From Patescibacteria group bacterium (lineage in GTDB: Bacteria > Patescibacteriota > Microgenomatia > 0-14-0-10-38-17): 64,000 bases of DNA. The notes below the pieces were generated by a model that did not search any database, was not told where the DNA came from, and saw nothing but the letters and a program-made list of their open reading frames with translations. The position numbers and the translations under genes were made by a program. Shown here in pieces: positions 9,311-43,453 of the stretch. The stretch is from positions 124,140 to 188,139 of the forward strand of contig JBMNNJ010000002.1 in NCBI GenBank assembly GCA_050953885.1, given 5' to 3'. Position 1 is the first letter of the stretch. The number at the start of each line of letters is the position of its first letter.

Positions 9311-11107
9311 ATGGACAATTCTCTTCTTTCCTCTCTTAACCCTCAACAACAAAAAGCGGTTCTTTTTGGCAACGGCCCCCTGCTGGTTTTGGCCGGCGCT
9401 GGCAGCGGCAAAACCCGCGTTTTAACTCATCGCGTTGCCTACCTTGTTGGCGAAAAAAAAATTAACCCCCAAAATATTCTTTGTATCACTTTCACCAATA
9501 AGGCTGCCGAGGAAATGAGAGAGCGGCTGCAAGAGCTCTTGCCCGGCCAAAATTTGCCTTTTGCCGGCACTTTTCACGCTTTCTGCGTTTCTGTTTTGCG
9601 CCGGGAAGCAAGAGCAATTAACCTTTCCCCCCATTTTGTGATTTGGGACGAAACCGACCAACTGGCCGCCATAAGAAAAATCCTCAAGAAAAAAGGCCAA
9701 GATTATCAGCCTTCTTCTGTTCTTAGCGCCATATCGCAAGCTAAAAACGAGCTTATCTCGGCCCTTGAATATCCTCAATATGCCCGCAATTCTTTCCAAG
9801 AGTTGGTAGCCGAAGTTTATCTTGCCTATCAAAAAGAACTAAAGCTTGCCCAAGCTCTGGACTTCGATGATCTGTTGGTAGAAACCGTCAGGCTTTTTCA
9901 AAACTATCCCGAAATTTTAGGAAAATACCAAGAACGCTACCAGTATATTTTTGTTGATGAATATCAAGACACCAACGCCGCCCAATATTTTCTCACCAAA
10001 GCCTTAGCCGGCCGCCATCAGAATCTTTTTGCCGTTGGCGATATAGCGCAGTCGATCTATTCGTGGCGAGGAGCCGATTATCATAATGTTTTACGCCTTA
10101 AAGATGACTTTCCTAATTTAACGGTGATCAACTTAGAGCAAAATTATCGCTCCACCCAAAATATTCTTGACGCCGCCTATGGTGTTATCTCCCAAAACCA
10201 TTCCCATCCGGTTCTTCATCTTTGGACCCAAAAAGAGAAGGGCGAAAAAATTTGCCTTTATAACGGCGCCAGCGAAGAAGATGAGGCTCGTTTTATTGCC
10301 GAAAAAATTATTGAACTTACCCAAAAAGGTTATCAAAACAATCAAATGGCTATTCTTTACCGCACCAACGCCCAGTCAAGAATTTTAGAAGAAGTTTTAC
10401 TTCGTTATAATCTTAATTATAAATTAATCGGCGGCGTTCGTTTTTACGAAAGACGGGAAGTTAAGGATGTTTTGGCTTTCTTGCGCGCTTTGGTTAACCC
10501 CCAAGATTCTCTTGCCTGGCAAAGAATCGAAAAAATTGGTAAAAGAATTAAAGGAAAATGGGAAAAATTTAGCCAAGAAAACAAGCCCTCCCGAGAACTT
10601 GAAAGCGCAAAATTGGTAAAGCTCGCCTTAGAAGAAAGCGGCTATCTTGGAAAACTTAACCCCGAAAAAGAAGAAGATCTTTCCCGAATAGAAAATATTA
10701 AAGAGCTGATTAGTGTGGCCCAAAATTTTCCCAATGTTGATGATTTTCTTGCCAATATTGCTTTGATGGAAGAAGAATATTTCCCTCAAGGAAAGCTTGA
10801 AAGCCAAAACAGCCAAGTCGCAGCGGTTAACCTGATGACTCTTCATCGGGCTAAGGGAACGGAATTCCCTGTTGTTTTTATTACCGGCCTAGAGGAAGGG
10901 CTCCTGCCTCATTATCGCGCCCTTAACAATCCTCAAGAGCTTGAAGAAGAACGCCGGCTTTGCTACGTTGGTCTCACCCGCGCCCAGGAAAAATTATTTT
11001 TAACCCTTGCCTCAAGGCGGCTTCTTTTTGGCAAAAAAAGCAGTAATCCGCCCTCAAGGTTTTTAAGCAATATCCCGGAAGATTTAATCAACCTTATTAA
11101 TTATTAG
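9311..11107 (+). CDS. UvrD/PcrA/Rep-family ATP-dependent DNA helicase (no intein)
   Basis: Walker A GAGSGKTRVLT, motif Ia TFTNKAAEEM, DEYQDTN, and an intact motif III VGDIAQSIYSWRGA. Confidence 0.8.
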   Translation: MDNSLLSSLNPQQQKAVLFGNGPLLVLAGAGSGKTRVLTHRVAYLVGEKKINPQNILCITFTNKAAEEMRERLQELLPGQNLPFAGTFHAFCVSVLRREARAINLSPHFVIWDETDQLAAIRKILKKKGQDYQPSSVLSAISQAKNELISALEYPQYARNSFQELVAEVYLAYQKELKLAQALDFDDLLVETVRLFQNYPEILGKYQERYQYIFVDEYQDTNAAQYFLTKALAGRHQNLFAVGDIAQSIYSWRGADYHNVLRLKDDFPNLTVINLEQNYRSTQNILDAAYGVISQNHSHPVLHLWTQKEKGEKICLYNGASEEDEARFIAEKIIELTQKGYQNNQMAILYRTNAQSRILEEVLLRYNLNYKLIGGVRFYERREVKDVLAFLRALVNPQDSLAWQRIEKIGKRIKGKWEKFSQENKPSRELESAKLVKLALEESGYLGKLNPEKEEDLSRIENIKELISVAQNFPNVDDFLANIALMEEEYFPQGKLESQNSQVAAVNLMTLHRAKGTEFPVVFITGLEEGLLPHYRALNNPQELEEERRLCYVGLTRAQEKLFLTLASRRLLFGKKSSNPPSRFLSNIPEDLINLINY

Positions 11108-26064: not shown

Positions 26065-26136
26065 TGCGCCTGCTTGGATTCGAACCAAGGACGTCTACTT
26101 TATAAGAGTAGCGCTCTACCACTGAGCTACAGGCGC
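26065..26136 (-). tRNA. tRNA-Ile (anticodon TAT; UAU reads AUA)
   Basis: Manual cloverleaf. Acceptor GCGCCTG/CAGGCGC, D-arm GCTC-AGTGGTA-GAGC, anticodon stem CTACT/AGTAG with loop CTTATAA, T-arm CTTGG-TTCGAAT-CCAAG, discriminator A. Confidence 0.75.
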
Positions 26137-26223
26137 AACGAAAGTTAAAAGTTTTTTAGATCGGACTTCTATCTGCTCTTTATTATACTTTATACTCTAT
26201 ACTTTATACACTACACATTAGAT

Positions 26224-28560
26224 TTACAGCCTTGCCCGCCGCGCCACCTCCGCTTCCACCAGTGCCCGGTCCCGACCATACTTTAGCCGCGAAAGCTCTT
26301 TAATTTTTTCCGCCAGTTCGGGATTATCCAAGGCTTTTTCCCGACTCATGTCTTTAGTTAAATCAATAGAAAAAGGCCGCACCGGCTCATTATTAACAAT
26401 TGTCTTCACATAAGCGTTAAAGCGCTCGATGTTTAAAAGATCATTCTCACCAAAAACCGGGGCAAACTCATGCTGGAGATAGGAAGCATCGGCCACCCCC
26501 ACCCGAAAAGCGATAAGAGTGCCCACATTGCCAAAAACCGCATTTTTAACCTCTTCTTCCATTTGGCCAATAAACTGGTTGGCGACCGTTAAATTAAGAT
26601 GATATTTACGCGCCTCGGATAAAATTTGGGCAAAATCAGGGGTGGCAAAGTTTTGAAACTCGTCAACATACAAATAAAAATCGCGACGCTGGGATTCGGG
26701 AACATCTTGCCGACTCATCGCGGCAATTAAAATCCGCGGCACCAAAATTAATCCCAAAAAGCTGGAATTTTCCTCACCAATTTTCCCCTTCGCCAAATTA
26801 ATCAATAAAATTTTTCCCTCATCCATTACTTTTCTAAAATCAAAAGCCGACTGGGATTGGCCGATGATATTGCGCATCATCGGATCGGTAACAAAGCGGC
26901 CAAACTTGGAAACAATATAATCCAAGACTTCGCTTTTATGAAAATCTGATGTTTGGGCAATCTGATCTGTCCAGTAGCGACGCACCATCGGATCGCTAAC
27001 CTTTGGTAAAATCTCCTGAACGAAAGAGGCATCGGTTAACGCCCGCACTACCTCCACAAAGCTTGAGCCCGGTTCGGCCATTACGGTGAGCATCGCATTT
27101 CTTATCGCGTGCTCAAACCGCGGCCCAATAATACCGGTTTTATAAGGATCATAGAGCTTATACATCAAATTGATAATTGAGGAAACCACAAAACTTTTTT
27201 CCTCCTCGGTGCGCGCTTCCAGTAAATTTAACCCCATCGGCCGGCTGGTATCGGAGGGATCAAAATAAATCACGTCTTCCGCCCGTTCGGGAGGAATCCG
27301 GGCTAAAACCTGCTCTACCGTATCATGGGGATCAATAAAGCAAACCCCCTTGCCTTCCTCAATATCCTGCAGAATCATCTGCTTTAAAAGCTCCGACTTG
27401 CCCGTACCGGTTTTCCCAATTACATAAATATGGCGCCGCCGATCATCGTCGCCAATACAAACCGGCCGCACCTGCCCCCGGTAAATGCTTTTTCCCAAAT
27501 ACAAACCGGTGGTGGGCACTTCCGGCGGCACCGGGGCGCGCTTGGCATTAAGCCAATAAATGTTCGGCGTTTCAATCGTTTTGTTAGGGAAATGAAAAAT
27601 TGTCGCCAACTCCGCCGTACTTAAAATAATTGGTGTTGTCAAAAGACGCCAGAGAGAACGATAGCGATAAATAAAATCAATCATAAACATTTTCTTAAAA
27701 CGAATTTTTTTGGAGGAAAGGCCATTTTGATCAGAGTCAAATTGGGCAAAAGCGCTTTTAATATTTCCCAAGTGATTTTTTGCCTCTTCCAGTGTCGGCG
27801 CGCAGACCACCACCCGAATCTCGGTTTCAAATCCCGGCTTGCTACACTTTTCCTCAATTTTCTCCATCGCCTTGGGGTCCATTTTAAAACTGGCTTTTTC
27901 CGGGTCGGCTTCTTTTTTCTTGCTTTGGGCCAAAAATTCCCGACCTCGTTTTTGCCACTTGCTGCCTACGGGAGCGGCCAAAATTTGAATTGCCGCCGCC
28001 TCTCCCTCCTTGAGTTTGGAAAGAGCCGAAGTAATTGAGGAAAGGGGATCAAGAGAAAAATCCTGATAAGTTTTAATTGGGTAAAAAGGAGAATTACGAA
28101 ATTGAAAAGCGGCATAAGCCACTTTACCATTTTTGAAAAAAAGATTATATTCATCAACCACGGTAATTATCGCCGTGGGATAAAAAGCGTAAACTTGCCG
28201 CTCTACCAATTCCTGCTTTCCTCGCGGCACACCGATATAAAAACGAATATCCTCCGGCCGACCAACAATTTCCAAAGTAAAATATTCGAGCGGCTTTAAA
28301 AAAGAAAAGCGACCGCCTTTTTTAAGCGAATGCAGGCTTTGAAAAAGCTGTTCGGCGGCGTCAATTTTAATCTCATTATCCTTGGGAAGAGCCACCTGCA
28401 GTAAAACTAAATTTAAAGAGCGTTCTTCCCGGTCGCGCTCCCGCCACCAGCAAAAAAGTAAATACCCCAAAAAGGAAAGCGCCAAAAGGCACAGAATAAT
28501 AATTATGCCCGAAATGAGATAGTGGGTAAGTAGGGAAATAAGATCGTTTAAAGGGGACAT
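26224..28560 (-). CDS. Membrane-anchored FtsK/HerA/TraG-superfamily P-loop ATPase (type IV secretion coupling-protein-like, TraG/TraD/VirD4 or DUF87 type)
   Basis: 778 aa with an N-terminal TM, Walker A IGKTGTGKSELLK and Walker B LYVDEFQNF. The architecture is typical of T4SS-DNA_transf / HerA-like ATPases. The exact family was not resolved. Confidence 0.5.
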   Translation of the reverse strand: MSPLNDLISLLTHYLISGIIIILCLLALSFLGYLLFCWWRERDREERSLNLVLLQVALPKDNEIKIDAAEQLFQSLHSLKKGGRFSFLKPLEYFTLEIVGRPEDIRFYIGVPRGKQELVERQVYAFYPTAIITVVDEYNLFFKNGKVAYAAFQFRNSPFYPIKTYQDFSLDPLSSITSALSKLKEGEAAAIQILAAPVGSKWQKRGREFLAQSKKKEADPEKASFKMDPKAMEKIEEKCSKPGFETEIRVVVCAPTLEEAKNHLGNIKSAFAQFDSDQNGLSSKKIRFKKMFMIDFIYRYRSLWRLLTTPIILSTAELATIFHFPNKTIETPNIYWLNAKRAPVPPEVPTTGLYLGKSIYRGQVRPVCIGDDDRRRHIYVIGKTGTGKSELLKQMILQDIEEGKGVCFIDPHDTVEQVLARIPPERAEDVIYFDPSDTSRPMGLNLLEARTEEEKSFVVSSIINLMYKLYDPYKTGIIGPRFEHAIRNAMLTVMAEPGSSFVEVVRALTDASFVQEILPKVSDPMVRRYWTDQIAQTSDFHKSEVLDYIVSKFGRFVTDPMMRNIIGQSQSAFDFRKVMDEGKILLINLAKGKIGEENSSFLGLILVPRILIAAMSRQDVPESQRRDFYLYVDEFQNFATPDFAQILSEARKYHLNLTVANQFIGQMEEEVKNAVFGNVGTLIAFRVGVADASYLQHEFAPVFGENDLLNIERFNAYVKTIVNNEPVRPFSIDLTKDMSREKALDNPELAEKIKELSRLKYGRDRALVEAEVARRARL

Positions 28561-29528: not shown

Positions 29529-30803
29529 ATGGCAAAAGAAAAACATCAATACTATTTTGTTTTAGGCACCAATCACTCCCTGTGTAAAGCGGATATTGTT
29601 AATGTTCTTGTCCGGGAAAAAGCTAAATTTTCAATTTTGGAGGCTTCGGAGGAAATTTTAATTATCGAAACAAAGGGGAGAATTGACACCGAAAAGCTTA
29701 TCAACACGCTGGGAAGCGCGGTAAAAATAGGCGAGATTTTTAAAAAATACGAGCCAAAAAATTTCCCGGCTCATTTCTTAAAAGAAGTTAACACCGAAAA
29801 ATTCAAAAGTTTTTTCTTAAAAGAGGCTTGCTCCCATTTTGCTATCAGTGTCTACAATGGCGGCGGCGGTTTTAAAAGCCTGAACCAGCTTTGGTTTTCC
29901 TGCCCTAAAATTGCCTCTTACCTTAACCAAAAAACAAAAGTCCGCTATCTGCACTGGCGGGAAAGAAAAATCCCGAGTTTCATTGTGGACCAAAAAAAAC
30001 TTTTAAAAACCGGCTTTGAGCTGATGCTTGCCAATGGCAGACAAAATATTTATGTTGGCAAAACCACCGCTTTGCAGGATTATCAAAGTTATAGTTTCCG
30101 CGACTACCAGCGGCCCCAAAAAGACCCTAAGTCGGGGATGATCCCGCCAAAATTGGCAAAAATAATGATTAATTTGGCCGGCAAGGAGAAAAACCAAACC
30201 TTTTTGGATCCTTTTTGCGGCAGCGGCACTTTTCTTCAGGAGCTAATTCTTTTAGGCTACAAAAACATTATCGGCACCGATAAAAGCCCAAGAGCCATCG
30301 AGGCAACGAAAAAAAATCTTGATTGGCTCTTTAGTCAGTATTCTTTAAATAAAAAAGATTACTCTCTTAAGATTTTTGAAAGTGATGTGCGCACTCTTTC
30401 TTCTAAACTGCCTTCCCAAAGCGTTGACGCTATCGCCAGCGAACCACATTTAGGTTCACCACAGGCAAAATATTTTTCTCCTCAGCAAATAAGGCAGGAA
30501 ATTGACCGCCTTTCTTCTTTTTATCTTAGCGCCTTTGCGGAGTTAAAACCGGTGCTTAAAAAAGACGCCACCATGGTGATTATTTTTCCTGTTTTCAGGC
30601 TTAAAAACCAATTCTTCCAACTTGAGATTTTGGAGAAACTACGCCAATTAGGATTTTTCCCCCAAGATTTTGTGAGCCCAAAGATTCCCGGCGCTAAGCT
30701 TTTAAACTTAAAAATCACTCCTCGCCACTCCCTTATCTTCTTCCACCCCGGCCAAACCATTTCCCGGGAAATTTTTATCTTTAAAACCAGTCATTTGAAA
30801 TAA
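29529..30803 (+). CDS. SAM-dependent methyltransferase (UPF0020/Trm11-RlmL-like, possible THUMP-type RNA methylase) with atypical motif IV
   Basis: Motif I DPFCGSGTFL. Motif IV reads SEPH instead of (D/N)PPY. N-terminal ~160 aa is a possible THUMP-like domain. Confidence 0.55.
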   Translation: MAKEKHQYYFVLGTNHSLCKADIVNVLVREKAKFSILEASEEILIIETKGRIDTEKLINTLGSAVKIGEIFKKYEPKNFPAHFLKEVNTEKFKSFFLKEACSHFAISVYNGGGGFKSLNQLWFSCPKIASYLNQKTKVRYLHWRERKIPSFIVDQKKLLKTGFELMLANGRQNIYVGKTTALQDYQSYSFRDYQRPQKDPKSGMIPPKLAKIMINLAGKEKNQTFLDPFCGSGTFLQELILLGYKNIIGTDKSPRAIEATKKNLDWLFSQYSLNKKDYSLKIFESDVRTLSSKLPSQSVDAIASEPHLGSPQAKYFSPQQIRQEIDRLSSFYLSAFAELKPVLKKDATMVIIFPVFRLKNQFFQLEILEKLRQLGFFPQDFVSPKIPGAKLLNLKITPRHSLIFFHPGQTISREIFIFKTSHLK

Positions 30804-31469: not shown

Positions 31470-34400
31470 CTAACACTTGCTGTATCCGCAATAAAGGCAT
31501 TTATGGCAACCCTCCTCGTAAATTAAGGCTGCCCGGCCACAGGAAGGGCAAAGATCGCGCTTACCGCTCTTGGCAAAAAGCGGCGCCTGCTCGCCAACCG
31601 CCTCCACTACCTCTCCGTCTTTGCCTAAATATTCATTCAAAACTTGAGCAATACCATCGGCCAAAGAACGCACTTTTTTCTTCCCAAAACCAACGCTTTG
31701 GCTACCGCCAATCCCCTCCAGCTGGTCAATCACTTGCGCCAAAACTTCCTGGGGAGAAAAAGAAGAGGCGATGCGCAAATTAAGCGAAATCAGCCGACCA
31801 ATCGCCTCGGCATCGGCGGCAATATCCGAACCGGCCTTACCCACATTAACAAAAACCTCCAAAGGCTGATTATCGCCATTAGCGTTAATCGTCACAAAAG
31901 CGGTTCCCACCGGCGTCTCTACCCGATAAGTTACCCCCACCACCTTGCGCGGCCGTTCTTTAATTAAAGGCAAGGAAACAGTTTTCTTTTCCTCCTCTTT
32001 GCCAACACCGGCATATAAAACCTGTTCGCTCCGGCAACCATCGCGGAAAATGGTAATTCCCAAACAGCCAAGTTTGTAAGCCAAAAGATAAGCTTTTTCC
32101 ACTTCCTCCACTCCCACTTCATGACGTAAATTAACCGTTTTGGAAACGGCATTATCCACTCCTTTTTGAAAAGCCGCCTGCATCCTGATATGGCCCTCGG
32201 GAGAAATTTCGTGGGCGGTGGCAAAAACTTTCTTTAATTTTGGCGGCAAGCTCTTAATTTCTCCCAACACCCCCGCTTCCTCAACTTCTCTGATTTGTTT
32301 GGCGCTCAAGCGATATTTTTTTGCCGCCGCCAAGAAGTAGGGATTAACAAAGGTTAATTCCCGACCGTTAGCCTTATGTTTGAAAGCCAGGGCAAAGGCC
32401 GGCTCAATGCCCGAAGAGGCCCCGGCGATAATGCTAATCGAACCGGTAGGAGCAATGGTTGTTAAGGTAGCGTTGCGCAGGGCCGGCCCGTTTTTGTAAA
32501 TGCTTTTGGAAAAATTTGGAAAGGGGCCGCGCACTTTGGCCAAATTCTGGCTTTCAAGATGCGCCTCGTCATGAATAAAACGCATTAATTTTTCGGCCAA
32601 TTTTTGCGCCTCTCGCGACTCATAGGGAATTTCTAGAAAAAACAGGGCATCGGCCCAACCCATTACCCCCAAGCCGATGCGCCGGTTTAATAGCGTTGCC
32701 TGGCGCACCTCTTCTAAGGGATAAGGATTTGCCTCCACCACGTCATCCAAAAACCGCACCGCCAATCGTACCACACCTCGCAACGCCTCCCAATCAAAAT
32801 CATTCTTTTTCAAGAAATTAACCAAATTAATACTCCCTAAATTACATGACTCGTTAGGATAAAGAGGTTGCTCGCCACAATTATGGATTAAGACCCCATT
32901 GGCAAAAAAGGCATTAGCTCCGGGGACCGAAAGATCATAAACTTTCTCCTTTCGACCCGTTTTCTCTACCAAAAGAACTTTATCTTTAAAATCACGCTGG
33001 TAAACTCCCTGTTTTTTTATCGCTTCTATTTGTTCAGAGTGAACTTTATTCCAAAAGCCAACTTTTTTAATAAAGGTAATTAAGTTTTGCCGGCTAATAT
33101 TAATCTCGAAACAAACCCCATCAGTTAAATAATCCCTCTTTTCCCCTTTAATATTTTGATAAGTAAATGCCCTCCGGGGGGCACGAGAGCGATCATAAAT
33201 CTTGCTAAAAATCCCCAAGTTTAAGAGAAGCAATTGAACTTGCCTTAGCAGTTTTAGTGATTTAGAAGTAAGACGAATATATTTATTACCCTTTTCCTTT
33301 TGATCAGCAATCGTCCCATCCGCGGTAAAAAGACCCTGGAGAAAACCGACCACCGTCTCTTTAGGTGCTCCAAAAATGGCTGCCGGCACTTCTTTTTCGG
33401 CCGCTTTTACCGGCTTTACCCCTAATTTCCTAAAGAAATCTCTTAAATAAGCACTGTGATAAGAAAGATGCCAAACTCCATTTTCTCTTTTAACCAGCTT
33501 GACCTTTCTCCCATACCATTGGTTGATAATTCCCGCTATCTCCTCCATCAAAAGTTTATTTTTCTCTCCAAAAGTAAAGCCAACCCGACCATTATCTTTA
33601 TCATCCCTAAGCCAACCATCACCAACTAGCAACCCTAAAACCAAACCCAACTCATAAGACCATTTTTGGGGGAAATTAAATCTATAAACTCTCCCGTTAT
33701 CACCCTGAACCTCATTTTTAATCTCAAAGGGAAGCTCTTTATTTTCAGAAAAGCCGCCTTCTTGGGCTTGGAGATAAACTTGGTCCTCGCCGGCTTTCAG
33801 CTCGGAAAGTGCCACCCACCCTCGGGGGGTAAAAAATTGGTGGTCAGCAGTCGCCTTAACCACCACCCCTGATTCGGTAACCAGCTGCCAAACCTCTTTT
33901 TCCCCTCTTTCCCAAAAACCGTTCACCGCTTCGTAGGAAAAATCCTTTTTTCCAAGAACTCGATTGTCCACGAACACCGCCACTGGCTCTTTCTTCCGAA
34001 CTATCTGCCCAATGGAAAGCAAACCCCTATCGGTAGCGACTAAGGTTGAACCGACCAAACATGGGTTAGTTGACTCTATCGGTCCCATTTGGGGTACCGG
34101 ATTGGCCGAACCCGCATTCGCCCGATCAATAAAGAAAAGCCCGGGATCGCCCGTTTTCCAAGCCTCTTCAATAATTTTTCCAAAAACCTGCCGCGCCTTA
34201 AGGCTGCCTGCCTTTTTACCAGTATGGGGATCAATTAACGAGTAGTCTTTATCTTCCAAAACTGCTTTCATAAAGCGATCGGTAGCCGCCACGGAAAGGT
34301 TAAAATTGGTAATCCCCCCCTCTTCTTTGCAAACAATAAATTCCAAAATATCGGGATGATCCACCCGTAAAATGCCCATATTCGCCCCCCGGCGCCGGCC

Positions 34401-34922
34401 GCCCTGCTTAATCTCATTGGTGGCCGCATCAAAAACTCGCATAAAAGAAACCGGGCCGGAAGCGACGCCACGGGTAGATTGGACAATGCTCCCTTGGGCG
34501 CGAAGACGCGAAAAAGAAAAACCCGTCCCCCCGCCGGATTTATGAATTAAGGCCGCTTTTTTAACCGCATCGAAAATGCTTTCTAAAGAGTCGTCAACCG
34601 GCAAAACAAAACAAGCCGAATATTGCAAGTGGTCATTACCAACGCCGGCGTTCATTAAGGTTGGTGAGTTGGGAAGAAAATCATGGCGCACAAAAGCCTC
34701 GTAAAAAAGGCGGGTGATTTTTTCAATTTCTTTCTCACTTACCCCAAAATTTTTTTCTATTGAAGCCATTGTTTTGGCCACCCGAAAGCACATTTCGTCC
34801 GGCGTTTCGATCACCTTTCCCTTCTTGTCTTTTCTTAAATAACGCTCGGCCAAAACCTCTTTTGCCTGCTGGCTCCATTTTCCCTTTGGCCACGAAGATA
34901 GTCGCTGGCGATTTTTTGCCAT
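31470..34922 (-). CDS. nrdJ: Class II (adenosylcobalamin-dependent) ribonucleotide reductase NrdJ, interrupted by an intein
   Basis: N-extein FLPNSPTLMNAG…GGGTGFSFSRLR…PIESTNP, intein, then C-extein CGEQPLYPNESCNLGSINL. C-terminal Zn-ribbon CPSCG…CHKCLYCG. 1150 aa in total, with a 756-aa mature enzyme. Confidence 0.85.
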   Translation of the reverse strand: MAKNRQRLSSWPKGKWSQQAKEVLAERYLRKDKKGKVIETPDEMCFRVAKTMASIEKNFGVSEKEIEKITRLFYEAFVRHDFLPNSPTLMNAGVGNDHLQYSACFVLPVDDSLESIFDAVKKAALIHKSGGGTGFSFSRLRAQGSIVQSTRGVASGPVSFMRVFDAATNEIKQGGRRRGANMGILRVDHPDILEFIVCKEEGGITNFNLSVAATDRFMKAVLEDKDYSLIDPHTGKKAGSLKARQVFGKIIEEAWKTGDPGLFFIDRANAGSANPVPQMGPIESTNPCLVGSTLVATDRGLLSIGQIVRKKEPVAVFVDNRVLGKKDFSYEAVNGFWERGEKEVWQLVTESGVVVKATADHQFFTPRGWVALSELKAGEDQVYLQAQEGGFSENKELPFEIKNEVQGDNGRVYRFNFPQKWSYELGLVLGLLVGDGWLRDDKDNGRVGFTFGEKNKLLMEEIAGIINQWYGRKVKLVKRENGVWHLSYHSAYLRDFFRKLGVKPVKAAEKEVPAAIFGAPKETVVGFLQGLFTADGTIADQKEKGNKYIRLTSKSLKLLRQVQLLLLNLGIFSKIYDRSRAPRRAFTYQNIKGEKRDYLTDGVCFEINISRQNLITFIKKVGFWNKVHSEQIEAIKKQGVYQRDFKDKVLLVEKTGRKEKVYDLSVPGANAFFANGVLIHNCGEQPLYPNESCNLGSINLVNFLKKNDFDWEALRGVVRLAVRFLDDVVEANPYPLEEVRQATLLNRRIGLGVMGWADALFFLEIPYESREAQKLAEKLMRFIHDEAHLESQNLAKVRGPFPNFSKSIYKNGPALRNATLTTIAPTGSISIIAGASSGIEPAFALAFKHKANGRELTFVNPYFLAAAKKYRLSAKQIREVEEAGVLGEIKSLPPKLKKVFATAHEISPEGHIRMQAAFQKGVDNAVSKTVNLRHEVGVEEVEKAYLLAYKLGCLGITIFRDGCRSEQVLYAGVGKEEEKKTVSLPLIKERPRKVVGVTYRVETPVGTAFVTINANGDNQPLEVFVNVGKAGSDIAADAEAIGRLISLNLRIASSFSPQEVLAQVIDQLEGIGGSQSVGFGKKKVRSLADGIAQVLNEYLGKDGEVVEAVGEQAPLFAKSGKRDLCPSCGRAALIYEEGCHKCLYCGYSKC
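32880..34061 (-). mobile_element. Intein (394 aa) with LAGLIDADG homing-endonuclease domain, inserted at the NPC|GE active-site loop of NrdJ
   Basis: Block A CLVGSTLVAT (Cys1), block B TADHQF, two dodecapeptide motifs LGLVLGLLVGDGWL and VGFLQGLFTADGTI, C-terminal VLIHN, and a +1 Cys in the extein. Confidence 0.8.
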
Positions 34923-35247: not shown

Positions 35248-38200
35248 ATGCTTTTAAACCCCGAGCAAAAAGCGGCTATTACTTATAAAGGCGGACCGCT
35301 TTTGATCATCGCCGGCGCCGGCACGGGCAAAACCACGGTGATCACCGAAAGAATTAAGCATTTAATTCTTAAGGAAAAAGCGGCTACCGACCAAATTCTG
35401 GCCTTAACTTTTACCCAAAAGGCCGCCGGCGAAATGGAAGAGCGGGTGGACATCGCCCTTCCCTACGGCTACACCGATCTTTGGGTGATGACCTTTCATG
35501 CTTTCTGCGACCGGCTTTTGCGCAACGAGGCGGCTCAAATTGGCTTAAATCCTGACTATCGCTTAGCCAGCGAAGCCGAATCCCTAAAACTTCTTCAAGA
35601 TAATCTTTTTTCCCTCCCTCTAAATTATTTTCGCCCTCTTGGCAATCCCACCCGTTTTTTGGACGGTCTTTTCCGTCATTTTTCCCGGCTTAAAGACGAA
35701 GATGTAAGCCCCGAAGAATATCTTCTCTGGGCTAAAAATTTAAAAACCGAAAAAGAGGAAAAGGAAAAATATCAGGAGCTGGCTAAGGTTTACCAAAAAT
35801 ATGAAGAAATTAAAGTTAAAAAGGGGCTGATGGACTTTGGTGACCTAATTACCCAAGTGTTAACTCTTTTTAGAAAGCGGCCCAATGTTTTGCGCCAATA
35901 CCGGCAAAAGTTTGCCCACATTTTAATCGACGAGTTTCAGGATACCAACATTGCCCAGTACCAGCTTTTAAAGCTTTTGGCCCCGCCCAAAACCAACCCC
36001 GATTTAACCATCGTCGCCGATGATTCCCAATGCCTGCCAAAAGAAACAAAAATTACCCTCCTTAAAGAAGAAAAAAGAATTGACCAAATTAAGCCGGGAG
36101 AAAAAATATTAACCGCGGTCGGCAAGGGATATACCTCTGTCAGCAAAGTCAGGCGCGTTTTTAAAAGAAAAGCGCGGGTGCGTCTGCTCACCTTTGAACT
36201 TGAAAGCGGCCAAAAAATCACCGTTACCGATAATCATAAAATGTTTTGCTATCTTTCTTCAGTAGAAAAAGATGATCGTTATTATCTCTATTTAATGGCC
36301 CAAAAGAAATACGGCTGGCGCTTGGGAATAACCCGAGATTTGTCAACACGGTTGAAAATAGAACCCCCTGCTGACAAAATCATTGGCATCGGCTCTTACG
36401 CCAGCGAAGAAGAGGCGCGCTATTATGAAGCCCTATATGCGGCCAAATATGGTTTGCCGACCGTTCCTTTTAATTCCCGCCCCCATCAGGCCATTAGCGG
36501 GGCTTGGCGGGATAAACTCTTTGCCGCCATTAACACCCGGGAAAAAGCGCAAAAGCTGGCCGACGATCTTCACTTAGAATTAGATTCTCCTCATTGCCTT
36601 GCCGATGGCGTGGTTCGCGGCGAAACAGAAAGAGTTAAGATTAATTTGGAAATGTGTCATCGCTGTTACCCAAGTAAGTATGACCGGGAAGGATTCTTGC
36701 CAAATCCCCAAGTGCTCCACCTGGTCAGGATGGAAACATCATCCGCAAAAATGATTGCCAAATTGAAAAAAGCCGGTTTTAAGCTTCACCCGACAAAAAA
36801 GGGAGAAAAATATCAATTAAGCACCGCCGATTTAAAAAAAGCGTGGGAGATAGCGTTAAAATTAGCAGAATTAACCGGAGGAGTTTTAGATAAAAAGTTC
36901 GCCGTCGGTAAAGTTCAACGCCAAACCAGAGCGGCCAGAATAATGCCTGCCAGCCATATTTTAGTAGGTAATTATCTGCCGGTTTTACAAAATAAGGAAA
37001 TTGTTTATAAAAAGGTAATTAAACGGGAAGAAAAAGTGGCTACCAAAACTGTTTACGACTTAGAGGTGGAGCGGACCCATAACTTTATTGCCAACGGGGT
37101 GGTGGTTCACAACTCAATTTATAAGTTCCGCGGCGCCGCCGTTTCCAACATTCTCCAGTTTAAAAAAGACTATCCTCAAGCAAAAATGGTCAGCCTGATT
37201 AAAAATTATCGGTCTTATCAGGAAATTTTAGACGCCTCCTACCGGCTGATTAAAAATAACGACCCCGACACCTTAGAAGCCCGGCTTAAAATAAGCAAAA
37301 ACTTAAAAAGTCAGCGGGGGGAGGGGGGGGAGGTAGAATTTTGGCATTTTAACCGCTTCGATGAGGAGGCCGAAGCGGTGGCACGAAAAATTAAAGAAAT
37401 GGTTAAAGAAGGCAAATATGCTTATGGCGATTTTGCCATTCTCCTGCGCACCAACCGCGCCGCCCAAAATTTCATCCAAAGCCTGCGCTACCAGCAAATT
37501 CCCTACCAGTTTTTGGGTCCGGGCCTTCTTTTCCATCAACCGGAAATTAAAGACTTAATTGCCTATCTTTCTTTCCTGACAAACCCCAACGATAACCTTC
37601 CCCTTTATCGACTGCTCCGCCTTCCTCCCTTTGGCCTTTCCGGCCGCGACTTGGCCGTGCTTAACGGTTTTGCCAAAAATGCCGGCCTTTCTCTTTTTGA
37701 AGCCATCAGCATCATCGCCAACCCGGCAGAAAAACCGGCTAATTTGCCCCTGCCGTTCTTAAGCCTTCAGGGAAGAAAAACCTTAGAAAAAATCACCCGT
37801 CTTTTAAATCGCCATCTGGAATTAACCAAAAAAGAAAAAAGCGCCGGCCAAATGCTTTATTATTTCTTACAAGATTCCGGACTTTTGGCAAAAATGGGCG
37901 AGGTGAAAACGGTAGAGGGGGAACGTCAGATAAAAAATGTTGCCCGTTTTTTTGAGAAACTGCGCCAATATGAGCTTGATCATGAGGACAGCTCTCCGGA
38001 AGCGGTTTTATCATGGATTAATCTTTCTCTTTCCTTGGGCGAAAGCCCTTTAGCCTCCGAAGTTGACTGGGGCGAGGAAAACCGCGTTAACCTCCTCACC
38101 GTTCATTCGGCCAAGGGCTTGGAATTTCCGGTGGTTTTTTTGGTTAATTTGGCGGCCAATCGTTTCCCCCTTCCCCAGCGCCGGGAACAAATTCCCATTC

Positions 38201-39222
38201 CCGAGGCCTTAATTAAAGAAATCCTCCCCCAGGGGAATTATCACGAACAGGAAGAACGACGGCTTTTTTATGTGGGGATGACGCGGGCGGCCGACTGCCT
38301 TTTCTTAACCGCCGCCGATTATTACGGCGAGAAAAGAAAAAGCCGAATTTCTCCCTTTGTTTTTGAAGCTTTAGGCGAAAAAAACCTTACCAATAAAATT
38401 TCCTCGCCCCTTTCTTTAGCCGAACAGCTTTCAATTTTTAAGTTCGAGGAGACAACGGAAAAAGAGGAAAAGGAGGAAAAGGAGGAAAAATTTATCCTCC
38501 CACCCAAAATTTCTTTTTCCCAACTTGAGACCTTTGAACATTGCCCCGCCCAATTTTACTACGCCTACCTTAAACGCCTGCCCACCCCGCCCACCGGCAA
38601 TCAAAATTTTGGCAGCACGATTCACAAAACCCTTCTTAACTTTTACCAAGCGGTTTTGAATAACCAAGAGGTTAGCCTTGACCTGCTTTTAAGTCTTTAC
38701 GAGAAAAACTGGCTTCCCTTTGGCTTTAAAAGCCGCGCCTGGGAAAAACGGCTTAAAAAAGAAGGCGAGCAAATGTTGAGGCGTTTTTTTAAAGAAGGTT
38801 TTAGTCCGGCCAATAAACCGCTTTTTCTGGAAAAACGTTTTGTTTTTCCCCTTAAGAATTGGCGGCTTTCGGGAGTGATTGACCGGGTGGATAAAACAAG
38901 CAAGGGGTACGAGATTATTGATTACAAAACCGGCAAGGTAATGGCCGATAAGGAAATTGAAAAAAGCCTCCAGATGACCGTTTACGCCTTGGCCGCCACC
39001 GATCCGGGCATTTTGGGCGCCAAACCGGAAGAAATTACCGCCACTTTTTACTTTTTATCCGAAGGGGTGAAGAAAAGTGTCCAGAAAAGCGCCGCCCAGC
39101 TTGAGAAAGGCAGGGAAGAATTGCTTAAACGTCTTGAGGCGTTACAGAATGATAAATTTTTGCCAAAACCGGGCTTTTGGTGCGACTTTTGCCCCTATCG
39201 CGCCCTTTGCGATGCGTGGTAA
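35248..39222 (+). CDS. UvrD/PcrA-like superfamily 1 helicase fused to a C-terminal PD-(D/E)XK (RecB/Cas4-like, Cys-cluster) nuclease domain, interrupted by an intein
   Basis: Walker A GAGTGKTT, DEFQDTN, and motif III split as VADDSQ|intein|SIYKFRGA. C-terminal nuclease region IDYKTGK… and CDFCPYRALC. Confidence 0.8.
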   Translation: MLLNPEQKAAITYKGGPLLIIAGAGTGKTTVITERIKHLILKEKAATDQILALTFTQKAAGEMEERVDIALPYGYTDLWVMTFHAFCDRLLRNEAAQIGLNPDYRLASEAESLKLLQDNLFSLPLNYFRPLGNPTRFLDGLFRHFSRLKDEDVSPEEYLLWAKNLKTEKEEKEKYQELAKVYQKYEEIKVKKGLMDFGDLITQVLTLFRKRPNVLRQYRQKFAHILIDEFQDTNIAQYQLLKLLAPPKTNPDLTIVADDSQCLPKETKITLLKEEKRIDQIKPGEKILTAVGKGYTSVSKVRRVFKRKARVRLLTFELESGQKITVTDNHKMFCYLSSVEKDDRYYLYLMAQKKYGWRLGITRDLSTRLKIEPPADKIIGIGSYASEEEARYYEALYAAKYGLPTVPFNSRPHQAISGAWRDKLFAAINTREKAQKLADDLHLELDSPHCLADGVVRGETERVKINLEMCHRCYPSKYDREGFLPNPQVLHLVRMETSSAKMIAKLKKAGFKLHPTKKGEKYQLSTADLKKAWEIALKLAELTGGVLDKKFAVGKVQRQTRAARIMPASHILVGNYLPVLQNKEIVYKKVIKREEKVATKTVYDLEVERTHNFIANGVVVHNSIYKFRGAAVSNILQFKKDYPQAKMVSLIKNYRSYQEILDASYRLIKNNDPDTLEARLKISKNLKSQRGEGGEVEFWHFNRFDEEAEAVARKIKEMVKEGKYAYGDFAILLRTNRAAQNFIQSLRYQQIPYQFLGPGLLFHQPEIKDLIAYLSFLTNPNDNLPLYRLLRLPPFGLSGRDLAVLNGFAKNAGLSLFEAISIIANPAEKPANLPLPFLSLQGRKTLEKITRLLNRHLELTKKEKSAGQMLYYFLQDSGLLAKMGEVKTVEGERQIKNVARFFEKLRQYELDHEDSSPEAVLSWINLSLSLGESPLASEVDWGEENRVNLLTVHSAKGLEFPVVFLVNLAANRFPLPQRREQIPIPEALIKEILPQGNYHEQEERRLFYVGMTRAADCLFLTAADYYGEKRKSRISPFVFEALGEKNLTNKISSPLSLAEQLSIFKFEETTEKEEKEEKEEKFILPPKISFSQLETFEHCPAQFYYAYLKRLPTPPTGNQNFGSTIHKTLLNFYQAVLNNQEVSLDLLLSLYEKNWLPFGFKSRAWEKRLKKEGEQMLRRFFKEGFSPANKPLFLEKRFVFPLKNWRLSGVIDRVDKTSKGYEIIDYKTGKVMADKEIEKSLQMTVYALAATDPGILGAKPEEITATFYFLSEGVKKSVQKSAAQLEKGREELLKRLEALQNDKFLPKPGFWCDFCPYRALCDAW
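36031..37113 (+). mobile_element. Intein (361 aa) inserted in helicase motif III (GDDxQ|SIYxFRGA)
   Basis: Block A CLPKETKITLL (Cys1), block B TVTDNH, C-terminal YDLEVERTHNFIANGVVVHN, and a +1 Ser. The central region has no clear LAGLIDADG motif; it contains a CHRC pair. Confidence 0.75.
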
Positions 39223-39502: not shown

Positions 39503-42500
39503 TTAAGGAATCACCTCCTGCCAAAGGTATGGCTTCTCGCGCAAAACTTTCGGGGCGGTGAAAAGATAGCTTGGGTCAAAGGTAAAAATCTCGGCGGGGG
39601 TAGTGGCGTTGGCACCGCTACGGAAATTTCTCTTCAGGAAAGCTCCTCCCCTAGGAACAAAAATCCCCTGACCATTAAACTGGCTATCGGTGGCCCCATT
39701 ACTTTCCACCGTCAGGTTTCCATCGGCAAAGTAGACTCCCTGGACTTTGGTAACACTTGGAGCAATGGTAATATTGCCGCTGACAATAAAGGCTAAAAAT
39801 CCGCCCGAGGTAACGCTGATGTTTTTGTTAATATTGAGGTTGTCTTCAACAAAAATAACCAGCTTTTGATTGGCACTAATAGAGAAGTTATCTTCATCAA
39901 GAGAAACGGCCATATCACCTGTCCCGTAGGGAGGATAATAATAAAGGCCGGCACTAGCGCCAACCAAAGCGGTTTTATTAATTGTACCTGATTTAATCAC
40001 CTTCACTCCGCTGTTGAAGCTTTCTTCTTTATTATCTTTAATCGCCAAGTCAACCAGATGGTCCAGTTTGTCGTAGGAGTAATCATTAAGAAGGGCTTGA
40101 GCAGAGCCGTCAATACTCCAGGCGTTGCCTTGAGTCTCCGTCGCTGTCCCTTCGCCAAAATCACGACTTGTTTCCGAGGGGGAGGAGATTAAACCAGAAT
40201 AGCCATTTAGGGCAAGAGAGAAATATTCCTTGCAGGTTGGACTCTCTACGCAAGCCTCAGGAATAGGAGAGGAAATGCCGCCACCGCCATGAACATCACC
40301 GCCTTGAGTTTGCCACCAAGGGTCGGGATGGGTAATATCAAAATACCAAACTGAAGAATCGGCGGTTAAAGCGCCATTGGAGGCTCTCACTCCCCAACAA
40401 TATCTTGTATCCCAAGAAAGATTTTCCAAAAATTTTTCAACCGTGCTACCGGAATCACTATCAGCACCGCCATCAAAGGTGAAGACAAAGTCTCGGCCGC
40501 CGACCAAGCTGCCAAAGCTAGGGCAAGGATTACCTTTACCAACATTTTTAACATAAAGAGAATACTGGTTATTACTCACGTCGCAATTGAACCCCCAACT
40601 GCTTAATTCGTACCAGATAAGATTAATTTTGTTCCTTTTAAGGGAAGTTCCGCTACTTGGGGAAATAAGAGAAGGAGCATCAGGGGCTTTATTAATACAA
40701 AATCTCCAAATGTCTGAATCTCTGGAAAGCGCCCCATTCGTTGCCACCACTTTCCAATAATAAGTGTTGCCCGCCTCAACGGTAACTGCTTGCTGTGTTG
40801 TACCTGAACCAACCGCGGCAACAACATCGCTTTCACTAAAGCTACTGCTTCCTTTCTTAAGATAGACCTTGTATTGATTGTTATTGACGTTACAATTTAC
40901 ACCCCAACTGCCTATCGGATTCCAATCTAAAGTAATCCTTGTGCTTGAAGTATGATAGTCATAGACAGGGGAGTAAAGGCTGGGTTTATCGGGGGCAACA
41001 TTTTCGCAGGATATAGAGAGACACTTTTTATCGTTTATCGCACAAGGTTGCCAACCGCTGCCGCAGTCATTGCTACTACAACCAGCTCCAGGACAACTAT
41101 CGCAAAACGCACTGCTGGTATAGTTGCAAAAGGGGTTGCCGGAACAGGCGCCGGGGCTATGAGGAATATCACAATGGAGATAATATTCTCCTACCGGCCA
41201 ATTAGAAGTAAGATTAATACTGTCATTGCAAAAACCACTGCCATTATTAGTGCAACGAGCCAGCTCATAATAACATTTTCCTCCGGAACAATATTTATTC
41301 AAATAGTCTGTCCCCTGGACCACTCCGGTCACCTCCCCACCGTCTCTTTTTTCTAACCATAGTCTTGTAGTTTCTCCGCTACCTAAACCGCTGCCGAAAA
41401 AGCTAACCTGAAATGGATCTGCCTGTTTTTTTATTTCCGAGGGGGCGTTGACAGAACATGTTTTAGAAGAACACTCCCAAAGGCGTAAATTATCAAAAGA
41501 TGCCCCCCAAGGCGTCCCCCACCAACCATAATAAGAAGTCCCTTTGCTTGCCAAATCCACCTTAAGAGAAGTATCGTCATAGGTATACCACAGGCATCTT
41601 TTAGTTTCCCAAGGGCCGTTGGGCTTAATACTCCCCCAACTCCCTCGATAATTATCAGTTAACTTATACCAAGCAGAGGACATGCCCCCTGATGATAACT
41701 TTATGTTTGGCCTCTGATAAGTCCTCTCCCCGCTAACAGACCCTCTTGCCCCCCAAGAAGAAATTTGTATTAAATAGTTAGTATTAGACTTTAAACCGGT
41801 AATTGTATTCGAAATATTATATTCAGGAGATGCATTACCTTCCTTGTAATTTGTAGAGCATAGTCCGGTGCTCTCCCCATTAGGGCAGCAAGACCCTCCT
41901 CCACAATGCTCCGGGTCCCAGGGACAACAGTCCCCACCTTGACCAATCACTCCATAAGGGTTACCAGCCCACATATTGTAGTAATTCTCAAAACGAGGAT
42001 TATACGCAGAAAGATTTACCTCCACTGGGGTTGTCCCCGCAGGGCAAGAGGTAGTCAAGCACGGCGGCGGTTGAGTTGGAATAGGACAAGTCCCCAATGT
42101 AATTTCGTCAGAAACCCCGCAAATGGGGTCGCTGCAAATATTACCCTCTTCCTCATTAGGAATATGGCCACCATAAGAAACTTCTAAAACATAACGGCCT
42201 TGAGGATAAGGACCTATGGGCATATCTTTTGCCCTACTATCAGGCGCCGCTTGCATATTAGTAATATTCCAAAAGCAAGATGACCAATTTTTACAACTCT
42301 CGCTACCAACGCTACAAACAACATAACCATAAGGAATACCGGAGTTCTCGGGTGAGCTAACTATTTTAACGTCTAATTGAGAGTAAGCGCAACCGCAATC
42401 AACAGAACCATGAATTGTTCTGGGGTCTTGTTTTACCTTAACTTCAACATAAGCATTACTAGTACAATCATTATACGTCCCCTCTACATTCATCTGCGCT

Positions 42501-43453
42501 GGGCACGCTTGCGGGGTGCAGCAATAAACTGTGTTAGGATCAGAACAGTAGCAATCTCTTTCTGCGGGGATTACTCTCCCCCCCACGCTGGAACAATCAT
42601 TTGCGTTTGGGGCGCACCATCTCCATTCACCTGATCTACAGTTTTCACAACTTTCTTGTGGAGTTGGTGTTACTGGCGTCGGGCCGCCGGGCGTCGGCGT
42701 CGGGCCGGCGGTGGGGGCAATAGTTTTAGTACAGGTAGCGGTATGTTCGGAGGTACAATTATTTGTCAAGGCCGTACTGGCAACCGAACAGCTATAAGTT
42801 GACCCAGCTGCCCCGGAAACGGTAAAACTGTAAGAAGGAGGATAATTGCAATTGAAAAGAAAAGAGTCGTTTATGCCCCCCCTATATACATCAACCCTTG
42901 TTTGATTTCCCGGAGTAAGAGTGGTCCCTGTGTAGAGAGATTTTCCGTTGATGTAGCTATTAATGGAAATAGTATCACTAGTGTTATTCTTTAGCGTTAA
43001 ATAAATCCTCGACAGGGGATATCCTGTATCACTCTTAGAAATACTGCCATTAGTAACCGTGCTTGTTACCGAATTTACAGGGCATTTGTTTGCTAAAGTA
43101 GCATACCAATAAATTGTTTTTGACTCACCCCTTGAAAGGGTATAGTCATATCTTAATCTCCCCCCATCCCACCTCCAATCACTGGGAGAAACACTAGAAT
43201 AATTCTCTGTTTGGACAGTAGCATACAAAATGCCTGACCTCACTACTTCATCATTGTTGGCAATAACTGTTTTCCACGCTATCCCTGCGCCGGGTTGAAG
43301 ATAGGGATGAGGATAACCACCCGAGTCATTAACAGTATACTGAAGAGAAATTTCCGCCCTCGCTGGTATGATTAATGGGTTTTTCTTAACTGGCAAAAAA
43401 CATAAAAACAAAACTAACAGTTTTAGGATGAATAAAAAAAATTTTTTAGCCAT
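39503..43453 (-). CDS. Very large (1316 aa) secreted Cys-rich cell-surface protein with duplicated FN3-like domains (putative adhesin)
   Basis: Signal peptide MAKKFFLFILKLLVLFLCF, a TPTPGGPTPVTPTP linker, dense Cys clusters, two paralogous ~100-aa modules (…NNQYKVYLKKG…YYWKVVATNGAL… and …NNQYSLYVKNVG…RYCWGVRASNGAL…), and a Gly/Asn-rich C-terminal region. Confidence 0.65.
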   Translation of the reverse strand: MAKKFFLFILKLLVLFLCFLPVKKNPLIIPARAEISLQYTVNDSGGYPHPYLQPGAGIAWKTVIANNDEVVRSGILYATVQTENYSSVSPSDWRWDGGRLRYDYTLSRGESKTIYWYATLANKCPVNSVTSTVTNGSISKSDTGYPLSRIYLTLKNNTSDTISINSYINGKSLYTGTTLTPGNQTRVDVYRGGINDSFLFNCNYPPSYSFTVSGAAGSTYSCSVASTALTNNCTSEHTATCTKTIAPTAGPTPTPGGPTPVTPTPQESCENCRSGEWRWCAPNANDCSSVGGRVIPAERDCYCSDPNTVYCCTPQACPAQMNVEGTYNDCTSNAYVEVKVKQDPRTIHGSVDCGCAYSQLDVKIVSSPENSGIPYGYVVCSVGSESCKNWSSCFWNITNMQAAPDSRAKDMPIGPYPQGRYVLEVSYGGHIPNEEEGNICSDPICGVSDEITLGTCPIPTQPPPCLTTSCPAGTTPVEVNLSAYNPRFENYYNMWAGNPYGVIGQGGDCCPWDPEHCGGGSCCPNGESTGLCSTNYKEGNASPEYNISNTITGLKSNTNYLIQISSWGARGSVSGERTYQRPNIKLSSGGMSSAWYKLTDNYRGSWGSIKPNGPWETKRCLWYTYDDTSLKVDLASKGTSYYGWWGTPWGASFDNLRLWECSSKTCSVNAPSEIKKQADPFQVSFFGSGLGSGETTRLWLEKRDGGEVTGVVQGTDYLNKYCSGGKCYYELARCTNNGSGFCNDSINLTSNWPVGEYYLHCDIPHSPGACSGNPFCNYTSSAFCDSCPGAGCSSNDCGSGWQPCAINDKKCLSISCENVAPDKPSLYSPVYDYHTSSTRITLDWNPIGSWGVNCNVNNNQYKVYLKKGSSSFSESDVVAAVGSGTTQQAVTVEAGNTYYWKVVATNGALSRDSDIWRFCINKAPDAPSLISPSSGTSLKRNKINLIWYELSSWGFNCDVSNNQYSLYVKNVGKGNPCPSFGSLVGGRDFVFTFDGGADSDSGSTVEKFLENLSWDTRYCWGVRASNGALTADSSVWYFDITHPDPWWQTQGGDVHGGGGISSPIPEACVESPTCKEYFSLALNGYSGLISSPSETSRDFGEGTATETQGNAWSIDGSAQALLNDYSYDKLDHLVDLAIKDNKEESFNSGVKVIKSGTINKTALVGASAGLYYYPPYGTGDMAVSLDEDNFSISANQKLVIFVEDNLNINKNISVTSGGFLAFIVSGNITIAPSVTKVQGVYFADGNLTVESNGATDSQFNGQGIFVPRGGAFLKRNFRSGANATTPAEIFTFDPSYLFTAPKVLREKPYLWQEVIP

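Follow-up and report, generated by a model that had tools for sequence, protein, structure and literature searches.

The window analysed here, a stretch of 64,000 nucleotides (nt) from contig JBMNNJ010000002.1 of a Patescibacteria group bacterium, contains at positions 35248..39222 of the + strand an open reading frame (ORF) of 1324 amino acids (aa) that encodes a helicase-nuclease interrupted by an intein, whose central insert is the main subject of this analysis. A Pfam scan of the whole 1324-aa protein gave matches to UvrD-helicase (aa 3-262, 8e-72), UvrD_C (aa 649-1023, 3e-59; UvrD_C_2 was also matched) and PDDEXK_1 (aa 1088-1322, 7.9e-45), bearing out the helicase-nuclease fusion proposed in an earlier note made from the sequence alone. 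The N-extein (35248..36030, +) comprises the first part of a UvrD/PcrA-type superfamily 1 (SF1) helicase, with the Walker A motif GAGTGKT at aa 23, motif II DEFQDT at aa 228 and the first half of motif III (...ADDSQ), while the C-extein begins with the second half of motif III (SIYKFRGA) and the UvrD_C and UvrD_C_2 domains (37114..38508, +) and ends with a PD-(D/E)XK nuclease (38509..39213, +). The presence of PF00580 and PF13361 together with motifs I, II and III (GAGTGKT, DEFQDT and ADDSQ/SIYKFRGA, the slash marking here and below the insertion point) places the host protein among the UvrD/PcrA/Rep SF1A helicases. Its nuclease displays the motifs IDRVD and DYK and a cysteine cluster, C1099...C1312-x2-C1315-x5-C1321, in the Fe-S pattern of the Cas4/AddB type, and is matched weakly by Pfam Cas_Cas4 (1.2e-4; PDDEXK_1 being the main match) and by NCBIfam TIGR00372 (cas4) at 1.3e-11, under the cut-off of that model. 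The host C-terminus thus fits a Cas4/AddB-type Fe-S PD-(D/E)XK nuclease, with cluster binding predicted.

The intein spans 361 aa (protein aa 262-622; 36031..37113, +), and its junctions read ...IVADDSQ/CLPKETK... and ...NGVVVHN/SIYKFRGA, i.e., it lies exactly within motif III, as the earlier note had claimed. The Pfam Intein_splicing family matches aa 278-622 (1.6e-18), split across a large central gap, and both NCBIfam intein_Nterm and intein_Cterm are above cut-off. The N-terminal half of the Hint fold (intein aa 1-80; 36031..36270, +) is delineated by AlphaFold2 strands at aa 7-74 and by PDB profile matches to the N-terminal parts of inteins, and the C-terminal half with blocks F and G (VYDLEVERTHNFIANGVVVHN; 36949..37113, +) by NCBIfam and PDB profile matches and by the model. 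All the canonical splicing residues described from the sequence are present, namely C1, T66 and H69 of block B, D343 and H350 of block F, H360-N361 of block G and a Ser at position +1. They also passed a conservation check, C1, T66, H69, D343, H350, H360 and N361 proving invariant when 37 diverse relatives, with 39-61% identity to the intein of the window, were aligned, and the +1 Ser being replaced by Cys in a few. Among the 120 best homologues, 30 lack the insert and show the motif ...DDSQS[IV]YKFRGA; intein-free orthologues read LTIVADDSQSVYKFRGA or ...SIYKFRGA at motif III, and in the intein-free proteins P0002-P0004 the stretches ADDSQSVYKFRGA and ADDSQSIYKFRGA match ADDSQ/SIYKFRGA. Since intein-free orthologues carry the joined motif, excision would rebuild motif III of the helicase exactly. 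That the element is an intein is practically beyond doubt, and by its sequence it is a canonical class-1 intein, predicted to splice. Neither the intein nor its host gene is unusual as such: both are of ordinary kinds, and 16 UvrD inteins were already counted in a 2016 survey (PMC4760082).

Inside the Hint fold lies a central insert of ~225 aa. The earlier note had found no recognisable endonuclease in it, which stands for direct scans (the window sequence gives no match in Pfam, PHROGs or NCBIfam, and no LAGLIDADG or HNH family), but a GIY-YIG-like module emerged from a structural model and from relatives of the insert. A LAGLIDADG type was ruled out, no such family matching at an E-value of 0.1 or below and the solved LAGLIDADG inteins aligning through the Hint part only; the standard LAGLIDADG match that would have made the insert ordinary was thus not seen. 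An HNH or His-Cys box type was likewise ruled out by the Pfam, PHROGs and NCBIfam scans and by the lack of conservation of a CHRC Cys pair. When the PDB was searched by sequence profile, first for the entire intein and then for the central domains one by one, only Hint matches, a weak match to 1zg2 and noise came back, and no solved structure in the PDB overlapped beyond the Hint part (Foldseek TMq at most 0.34).

The AlphaFold model built on 37 homologues (pLDDT 92.9, pTM 0.89; a single-sequence model with pLDDT 33.6 was set aside) places three units between the Hint halves: a module at intein aa 84-140, two helices at 157-180 and an alpha/beta domain at 186-306. The GIY-YIG core has been defined as a hairpin followed by an arginine helix, a linker strand and a glutamate helix (PMC3045582). 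The predicted module (36280..36450, +) has this beta-beta-alpha-beta-alpha order, with strands at 84-91 and 95-101 forming the hairpin YYLYLM / GWRLGIT, a helix at 104-110 carrying R107 (the 'arginine helix'), a linker strand at 116-123 and a helix at 126-140 carrying E133 (the 'glutamate helix'). In an alignment of 94 diverse sequences with a mean column identity of ~37%, Y87, R97, G99 and R107 never vary and E111 and E133 show a conservation of at least 90%, so that the Tyr of GIY, the Gly of YIG, the Arg and the Glu of the superfamily can all be recognised. The spacing from G99 to R107 is 8 residues, as it is from G19 to R27 in I-TevI. By this mapping Y87 would be the GIY tyrosine and putative general base, G99 the YIG glycine, R107 the residue of the arginine helix and E133 the putative metal ligand; the Hpy188I residues expected to correspond to Y87, R97, R107 and E133 are Tyr63, Lys73, Arg84 and Glu149, respectively.

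Relatives of the insert point the same way. Pfam GIY-YIG was weakly matched by 17 of 94 diverse copies of residues 78-186 (best E 5.6e-4), any other Pfam family by at most 2 of the 94, and two GIY-YIG matches rescanned individually were in register, beginning with the YVYLM strand and extending over positions 2-69 of the 78 in the profile. The family profile aligned with the GIY-YIG protein 1zg2 so that YVYLM faces YVYIL and RiG faces YTG, in a weak PDB profile match (E 0.58). The comparison with solved GIY-YIG proteins gave values of 5.6 for HIGLE/SLX1 (7wme), 5.6 and 5.1 for SLX1 (7cq2 and 6seh), 4.9 for a GIY-YIG restriction enzyme (9u75) and also for the I-TevI catalytic domain (1ln0), 4.5 for EF2693 (1ywl), 4.4 for the UvrC N-domain (1ycz) and 4.1 for T4 EndoII (2wsh). 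On this evidence the core is likely derived from a GIY-YIG nuclease, and its putative activity as a homing endonuclease is favoured with less assurance.

The module is followed by a two-helix linker (intein aa 157-180, with modelled helices at 157-166 and 169-180; 36499..36570, +) that has the conserved pattern L..LF..IDT...A..L..DL, was assigned to no family and possibly contacts DNA. Beyond it, the second central domain (intein aa 186-306; 36586..36948, +) is confidently modelled as alpha/beta, with conserved R196, G197, R201, C209, R211 and H230, and was matched by neither a Pfam nor a PDB family; Pfam recognised in it none of the modules with which known GIY-YIG homing endonucleases bind DNA. 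Conservation is lowest here (mean pairwise identity 0.43, versus 0.52 for the GIY-YIG-like part), and the domain was detected in 83 of 149 more distant relatives, versus 146 of 149 for the GIY-YIG-like part, and has no invariant column in the wide alignment. The CHRC pair singled out in the earlier note proved not to be a motif: C209, its first Cys, is invariant in the 37 close inteins and 80-95% conserved in the wider family, whereas its second Cys is not, the consensus reading MCYRNY at that place. Homing endonucleases with a GIY-YIG core typically have variable DNA-binding modules (PMC3943268), and by this analogy the second domain is presumed to be the target-DNA-recognition module.

The distribution of the intein among close relatives is patchy. 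Empty-site alleles occur in three contigs, L001 (92% nt identity), L003 (87.5%) and L002 (83%), the last from a metagenome-assembled genome of Shapirobacteria, and the empty site of L001 reads GTCGCCGACGATTCCCAA/TCAGTGTACAAGTTTAGGGGCGCC; the intein is present in protein P0001 (locus L084), at 93% aa identity. Some host pairs that are 87% identical have inteins only 48% identical, and inteins 72% identical occur in hosts 44% identical; in just 30 of the 88 sequences do intein and host have the same nearest neighbour, with a Spearman correlation of 0.23. Such disagreement between intein and host trees indicates horizontal movement. The ratio of non-synonymous to synonymous substitution rates (dN/dS) against L084, a single pair with few substitutions, is 0.27 for the intein (0.27 in the GIY-YIG-like part and 0.38 in the second domain) and 0.07-0.10 for the exteins, which for the intein means a relaxed form of purifying selection. 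Synonymous divergence between the gene of the window (35248-39222) and that of L084 (68-4030) is 0.119 in the N-extein, 0.113 in the intein and 0.284 in the C-extein, and L001 (97-2976) shows a block 96-99% identical at spliced nt ~1200-1800 in a gene that is 92% identical overall. Uneven divergence and the L001 block suggest a mosaic recombination history of the gene; a co-conversion tract around the insertion site was not evident in comparison with the empty alleles.

Beyond these relatives, the element is widespread. With the central 250 aa as query, HMMER returned 256 clusters at 50% identity in an exhaustive search. Homology searches by word index, using the insert itself or the profile of the GIY-YIG-like domain, were near-empty even though the database contains a 96%-identical protein, and are not read as a sign of rarity. 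Pfam was run on 9 of the 256 clusters, which comprised 6 UvrD-like helicases, 1 sequence with intein/Hint matches only and 2 short fragments, and in the 6 helicases the domain sits just past position ~252 of 271 of the UvrD-helicase profile. A scan of GTDB species genomes yielded at least 190 relatives. Among 80 fetched loci, 72 have the intein at DDxQ/[SC][IV][YF]x[FW]RGA, in many phyla, and in all 72 its length remains within 359-374 aa, with no drift toward mini-inteins. The hosts include many classes of the Candidate Phyla Radiation (CPR), Omnitrophota, Elusimicrobiota, Rokubacteria, Saganbacteria, Aerophobetes, Methylomirabilia, Ignavibacterium and Aquicultor. Some UvrD-like hosts, P0170 and P0190 among them, have two inteins each, a LAGLIDADG one nearer the N-terminus and a GIY-YIG-like one at motif III. 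Among the predicted viral structures in BFVD, three contain an intein whose overall architecture is that of the model: an unnamed 924-aa protein (A0A140G655, TMq 0.75) and two phage proteins, a DNA helicase and an adenine methyltransferase (A0A8S5V111 and A0A8S5TZY8, TMq ~0.55); a tblastn search with the central insert against 50,697 phage genomes gave no match. Taken together, the empty sites, the incongruence, the constraint and the spread fit the homing cycle of an active element.

The window itself encodes a second UvrD/PcrA-type helicase, a 598-aa paralogue (9311..11107, +; Pfam) in which motif III is unbroken (VGDIAQSIYSWRGA at aa 242-255), so that the intein-free copy reported in the earlier note is real. 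Its DNA is identical to the intein target site of the helicase-nuclease gene at 26 of 42 nt, and this low identity may explain why it has not been invaded.

The explanation favoured here, with a probability of roughly 0.6 for the whole of it, is a mobile class-1 intein in motif III that carries a divergent GIY-YIG-type homing endonuclease. The host would be a Microgenomates-type CPR bacterium near Shapirobacteria, in which the intein would have invaded motif III (GDDxQ/SIYxFRGA) of the gene for a UvrD-like helicase with an Fe-S PD-(D/E)XK nuclease. After translation the Hint domain, through C1, T66/H69, D343, H360-N361 and the +1 Ser, would excise the 361-aa intein and ligate ...ADDSQ to SIYKFRGA..., restoring a 963-aa helicase-nuclease. 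The ~225-aa insert would act as the homing endonuclease, with Y87, R97 (in place of the YIG Tyr), G99, R107, E111 and E133 forming the catalytic module, and with the two-helix linker and the alpha/beta domain probably reading the target DNA. The free intein would then cut intein-less alleles at or near the sequence coding for motif III, and recombinational repair would copy the intein into the cut allele; homing enzymes of the GIY-YIG type typically leave 3' overhangs of 2 nt, and their cut may lie some way from the insertion site. The anatomy, the splicing residues, the predicted fold, the conservation, the polymorphism of presence and absence and the incongruence of intein and host are what the analysis shows, while splicing, catalysis by the GIY-YIG-like module and DNA binding by the second domain are all inferred.

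Several observations weigh against this explanation. No counterpart was found of the conserved Asn that follows the glutamate helix in I-TevI (N90) and UvrC (N88), the conserved stretch at this place being Y140-G-x-P143-T...F147. The window sequence gives no match to Pfam GIY-YIG (PF01541), and no family member attains its gathering score, the two rescanned members scoring 15.6 and 12.1 bits versus 22.6. An hhalign comparison of the family profile of this domain with one I-TevI sequence left the core unaligned, which is uninformative with a single-sequence template. The incongruence could come in part from ordinary recombination among relatives, and the dN/dS values from the one pair count here as well. 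Finally, the YIG tyrosine is replaced by Arg (R97) in all 94 sequences; however, a basic residue occupies the same position in the active enzyme Hpy188I (Lys73; PMC3045582), and such a substitution is therefore compatible with catalysis. The loss of the YIG tyrosine, the missing Asn counterpart and the failure of Pfam to recognise the domain would also fit an insert that is an inactive relic of some endonuclease, whether GIY-YIG or another, persisting because an important gene tolerates only its precise deletion from motif III and spreading solely by vertical descent and ordinary recombination. The faster evolution of the intein relative to the exteins and the many distant members in which the second domain is undetectable agree with such a relic. 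Yet the putative catalytic residues have been kept over 94 divergent sequences, and intein length is tightly held. Decaying endonuclease domains usually shrink toward mini-inteins. Strong incongruence and empty sites in near-identical relatives also fit ongoing invasion, and the insert is unlikely to be a relic. The cut might alternatively be made by the second domain (aa 186-306) as a nuclease of a new type, the GIY-YIG-like module being only a scaffold or DNA binder: this domain has conserved polar and basic residues of its own, including a Cys/His pair, and matched no known family, but it is the least conserved part, goes undetected in many of the distant relatives in which the GIY-YIG-like part is detected and has no invariant column, and variable DNA-binding modules are just what is typical of GIY-YIG homing enzymes (PMC3943268), all of which makes a cut by the second domain distinctly improbable.

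A different kind of explanation holds that the intein has been co-opted as a post-translational switch, its conditional splicing (dependent, e.g., on the redox state, on damaged DNA or on the central domains binding DNA) gating the helicase-nuclease. The unspliced precursor, interrupted in a catalytic ATPase motif, should be inactive, the intein is widespread across phyla, and inteins in ATPases of replication and repair have been described as possible sensors (PMC4760082), a literature to which a paper on the mycobacterial DnaB intein also belongs (PMC6195587). Against regulation of this sort, the intein is dispensable, since close relatives do without it, it is distributed sporadically and incongruently, as selfish elements are, and the sequence indicates no specific sensor; a switch is accordingly judged improbable. 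The earlier note had instead looked to the neighbouring gene, which encodes the B12-dependent ribonucleotide reductase NrdJ (ORF 31470..34922, -, 1150 aa with its intein) and is interrupted by a 394-aa LAGLIDADG intein (32880..34061, -; Pfam LAGLIDADG_3 2.6e-22), and had suggested a common origin of the two inteins or homing from one host to the other. The C-terminal likeness on which this rested, VYDL.V...F.ANGV..HN, is real but confined to the last 45 residues (BLASTP, 40% identity, E 2e-5), and both inteins occur in this strain and are both absent from L002 and L003, where nrdJ is intein-free (3496-5766, 756 aa, and 3381-5657, 758 aa, respectively). In the final 21 residues, however, the NrdJ intein is identical to the helicase intein at 12 positions, while the unrelated Spirulina DnaX mini-intein (7cfv) and the PhoCDC21-1 intein (6rpq) reach 15 each; the likeness is thus the generic consensus of blocks F and G, and neither a shared origin nor cross-homing is supported by it. 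BLASTP found no significant similarity between the N-terminal Hint halves, the endonucleases differ in type (LAGLIDADG versus GIY-YIG-like), and the true relatives of the helicase intein are all in UvrD motif III, leaving a link between the two very improbable indeed. The G+C content at third codon positions is lower in both inteins than in their exteins (0.435 vs 0.503 and 0.396 vs 0.493), which is compatible with both being imports and incompatible with a derivation of one from the other. As a separate observation, two neighbouring genes, nrdJ and the helicase gene, are polymorphic for different inteins, neither of which is present in L002 or L003.

The host gene is flanked by nrdJ, which is divergent, and by the gene of a large Cys-rich surface protein, and no gene for an AddB- or AdnA-type partner subunit adjoins it. 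The host protein is frequent in CPR genomes under the plain annotation 'UvrD-helicase domain-containing protein', and it reaches no NCBIfam equivalog cut-off, those of UvrD and Rep included (PcrA, 456 vs 911; AddA, 183 vs 708; RecB, 150 vs 696); the intein reduces the scores, and the domain architecture differs too. The locus was not taken for a defence system, the PADLOC matches reflecting generic UvrD (GajB) similarity and the partner gene being absent nearby, and the host is regarded as a housekeeping enzyme of end processing or repair with an architecture that is already known. A 94-aa antisense ORF at 35937..36221 is taken as spurious, and Rfam and promoter/terminator scans of the region gave nothing above chance. 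Directly downstream and convergent, the 1316-aa Cys-rich ORF at 39503-43453 (-) has no Pfam match and a hydrophobic N-terminal stretch that is a probable signal peptide. Further upstream, a DNA/RNA methyltransferase-like ORF of 424 aa (29529-30803, +) has its methyltransferase domain at aa 189-351 only, the extra N-terminal ~190 aa matching nothing in Pfam, and L003 has, not far from the Cob_adeno_trans and nrdJ genes common to both, a 220-aa gene with the same Pfam domains (1612-2274). At 26062-26137 (-), a tRNA-Ile whose anticodon, TAT, is seldom seen in bacteria adjoins a 778-aa TraG/VirD4-like coupling-protein ORF (26224-28560, -); the two may be left over from a conjugative or integrated element.

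The endonuclease types reported for inteins comprise LAGLIDADG, HNH, Vsr-like (at split-intein loci), antisense LAGLIDADG and endonuclease VII-like enzymes (bioRxiv 10.1101/2025.01.02.630785); the same paper names GIY-YIG a single time, where it lists nucleases associated with inteins in general, and GIY-YIG enzymes were stated to be absent from inteins in 2006 (PMC1564403) and 2009 (PMC2677866). No paper was found on a 'GIY-YIG intein', nor any joining 'inteins' and 'Patescibacteria', in searches of a collection with few subscription journals, so that an earlier description may exist. The endonuclease type is probably undescribed. It is nearly as likely as not, and proposed here tentatively, that this is the first recognised GIY-YIG-derived homing endonuclease in frame in a contiguous intein, belonging to a large and actively mobile family (at least 190 species-level genomes, with look-alikes among phage proteins) that is dedicated to UvrD motif III and has a variant active site, Tyr/Arg/Gly/Arg/Glu, and a new target-recognition domain. 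If so, it would be one more instance in which a Hint domain has independently captured a nuclease, and would bear on the 'splicing first, endonuclease later' model of intein origin; it would provide a GIY-YIG enzyme that is compact, consists of a single chain, excises itself and uses a new DNA-recognition domain to target a highly conserved stretch of helicase coding sequence, and it would imply that much of the intein diversity of uncultured phyla escapes profile-based annotation.

Each part of the system has known counterparts. The host combines a UvrD-like SF1 motor with a C-terminal RecB-family PD-(D/E)XK nuclease, as do AddA, AddB, AdnAB and RecB, and its nuclease has the four-Cys pattern of AddB and Cas4; in contrast to AddA, AddB, AdnAB and RecB, it is encoded by a lone gene with no adjacent partner and scores far under the equivalog cut-offs. 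As in class-1 inteins with an embedded endonuclease (PI-SceI, PI-PfuI, PI-TkoII and the Mtu RecA intein), the Hint fold is split by an insert, the predicted chemistry involves C1, TxxH, the block F Asp, HN and a +1 Ser, and the insertion interrupts an ATPase motif that is conserved in a protein of DNA repair, its distribution being sporadic, with empty sites in close relatives; unlike in those inteins, the insert is not LAGLIDADG. With the GIY-YIG nucleases (I-TevI, I-BmoI, the UvrC N-domain, SLX1/HIGLE, T4 EndoII, Hpy188I and UPF0213) the module shares a hairpin with conserved Tyr and Gly, an arginine helix with its Arg 8 residues past the Gly, a linker strand and a glutamate helix with its Glu, and, as in the homing endonucleases of this superfamily, the putative catalytic core is followed by extra, presumably DNA-binding, modules. 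It differs from them in the Arg at the YIG Tyr position, in the missing Asn counterpart and in its sub-threshold Pfam scores, and from the free-standing or intron-encoded GIY-YIG enzymes in lying in frame within an intein. Finally, the non-canonical intein endonucleases reported recently (bioRxiv 10.1101/2025.01.02.630785) are likewise not standard in-frame LAGLIDADG enzymes, and these cases, together with the present one, support repeated capture of different nucleases by Hint domains. The present nuclease differs from those non-canonical cases in having another fold and in being in frame and contiguous, and its family, unlike the cases from actinobacteriophages, is found mainly in cellular genomes of uncultured phyla.

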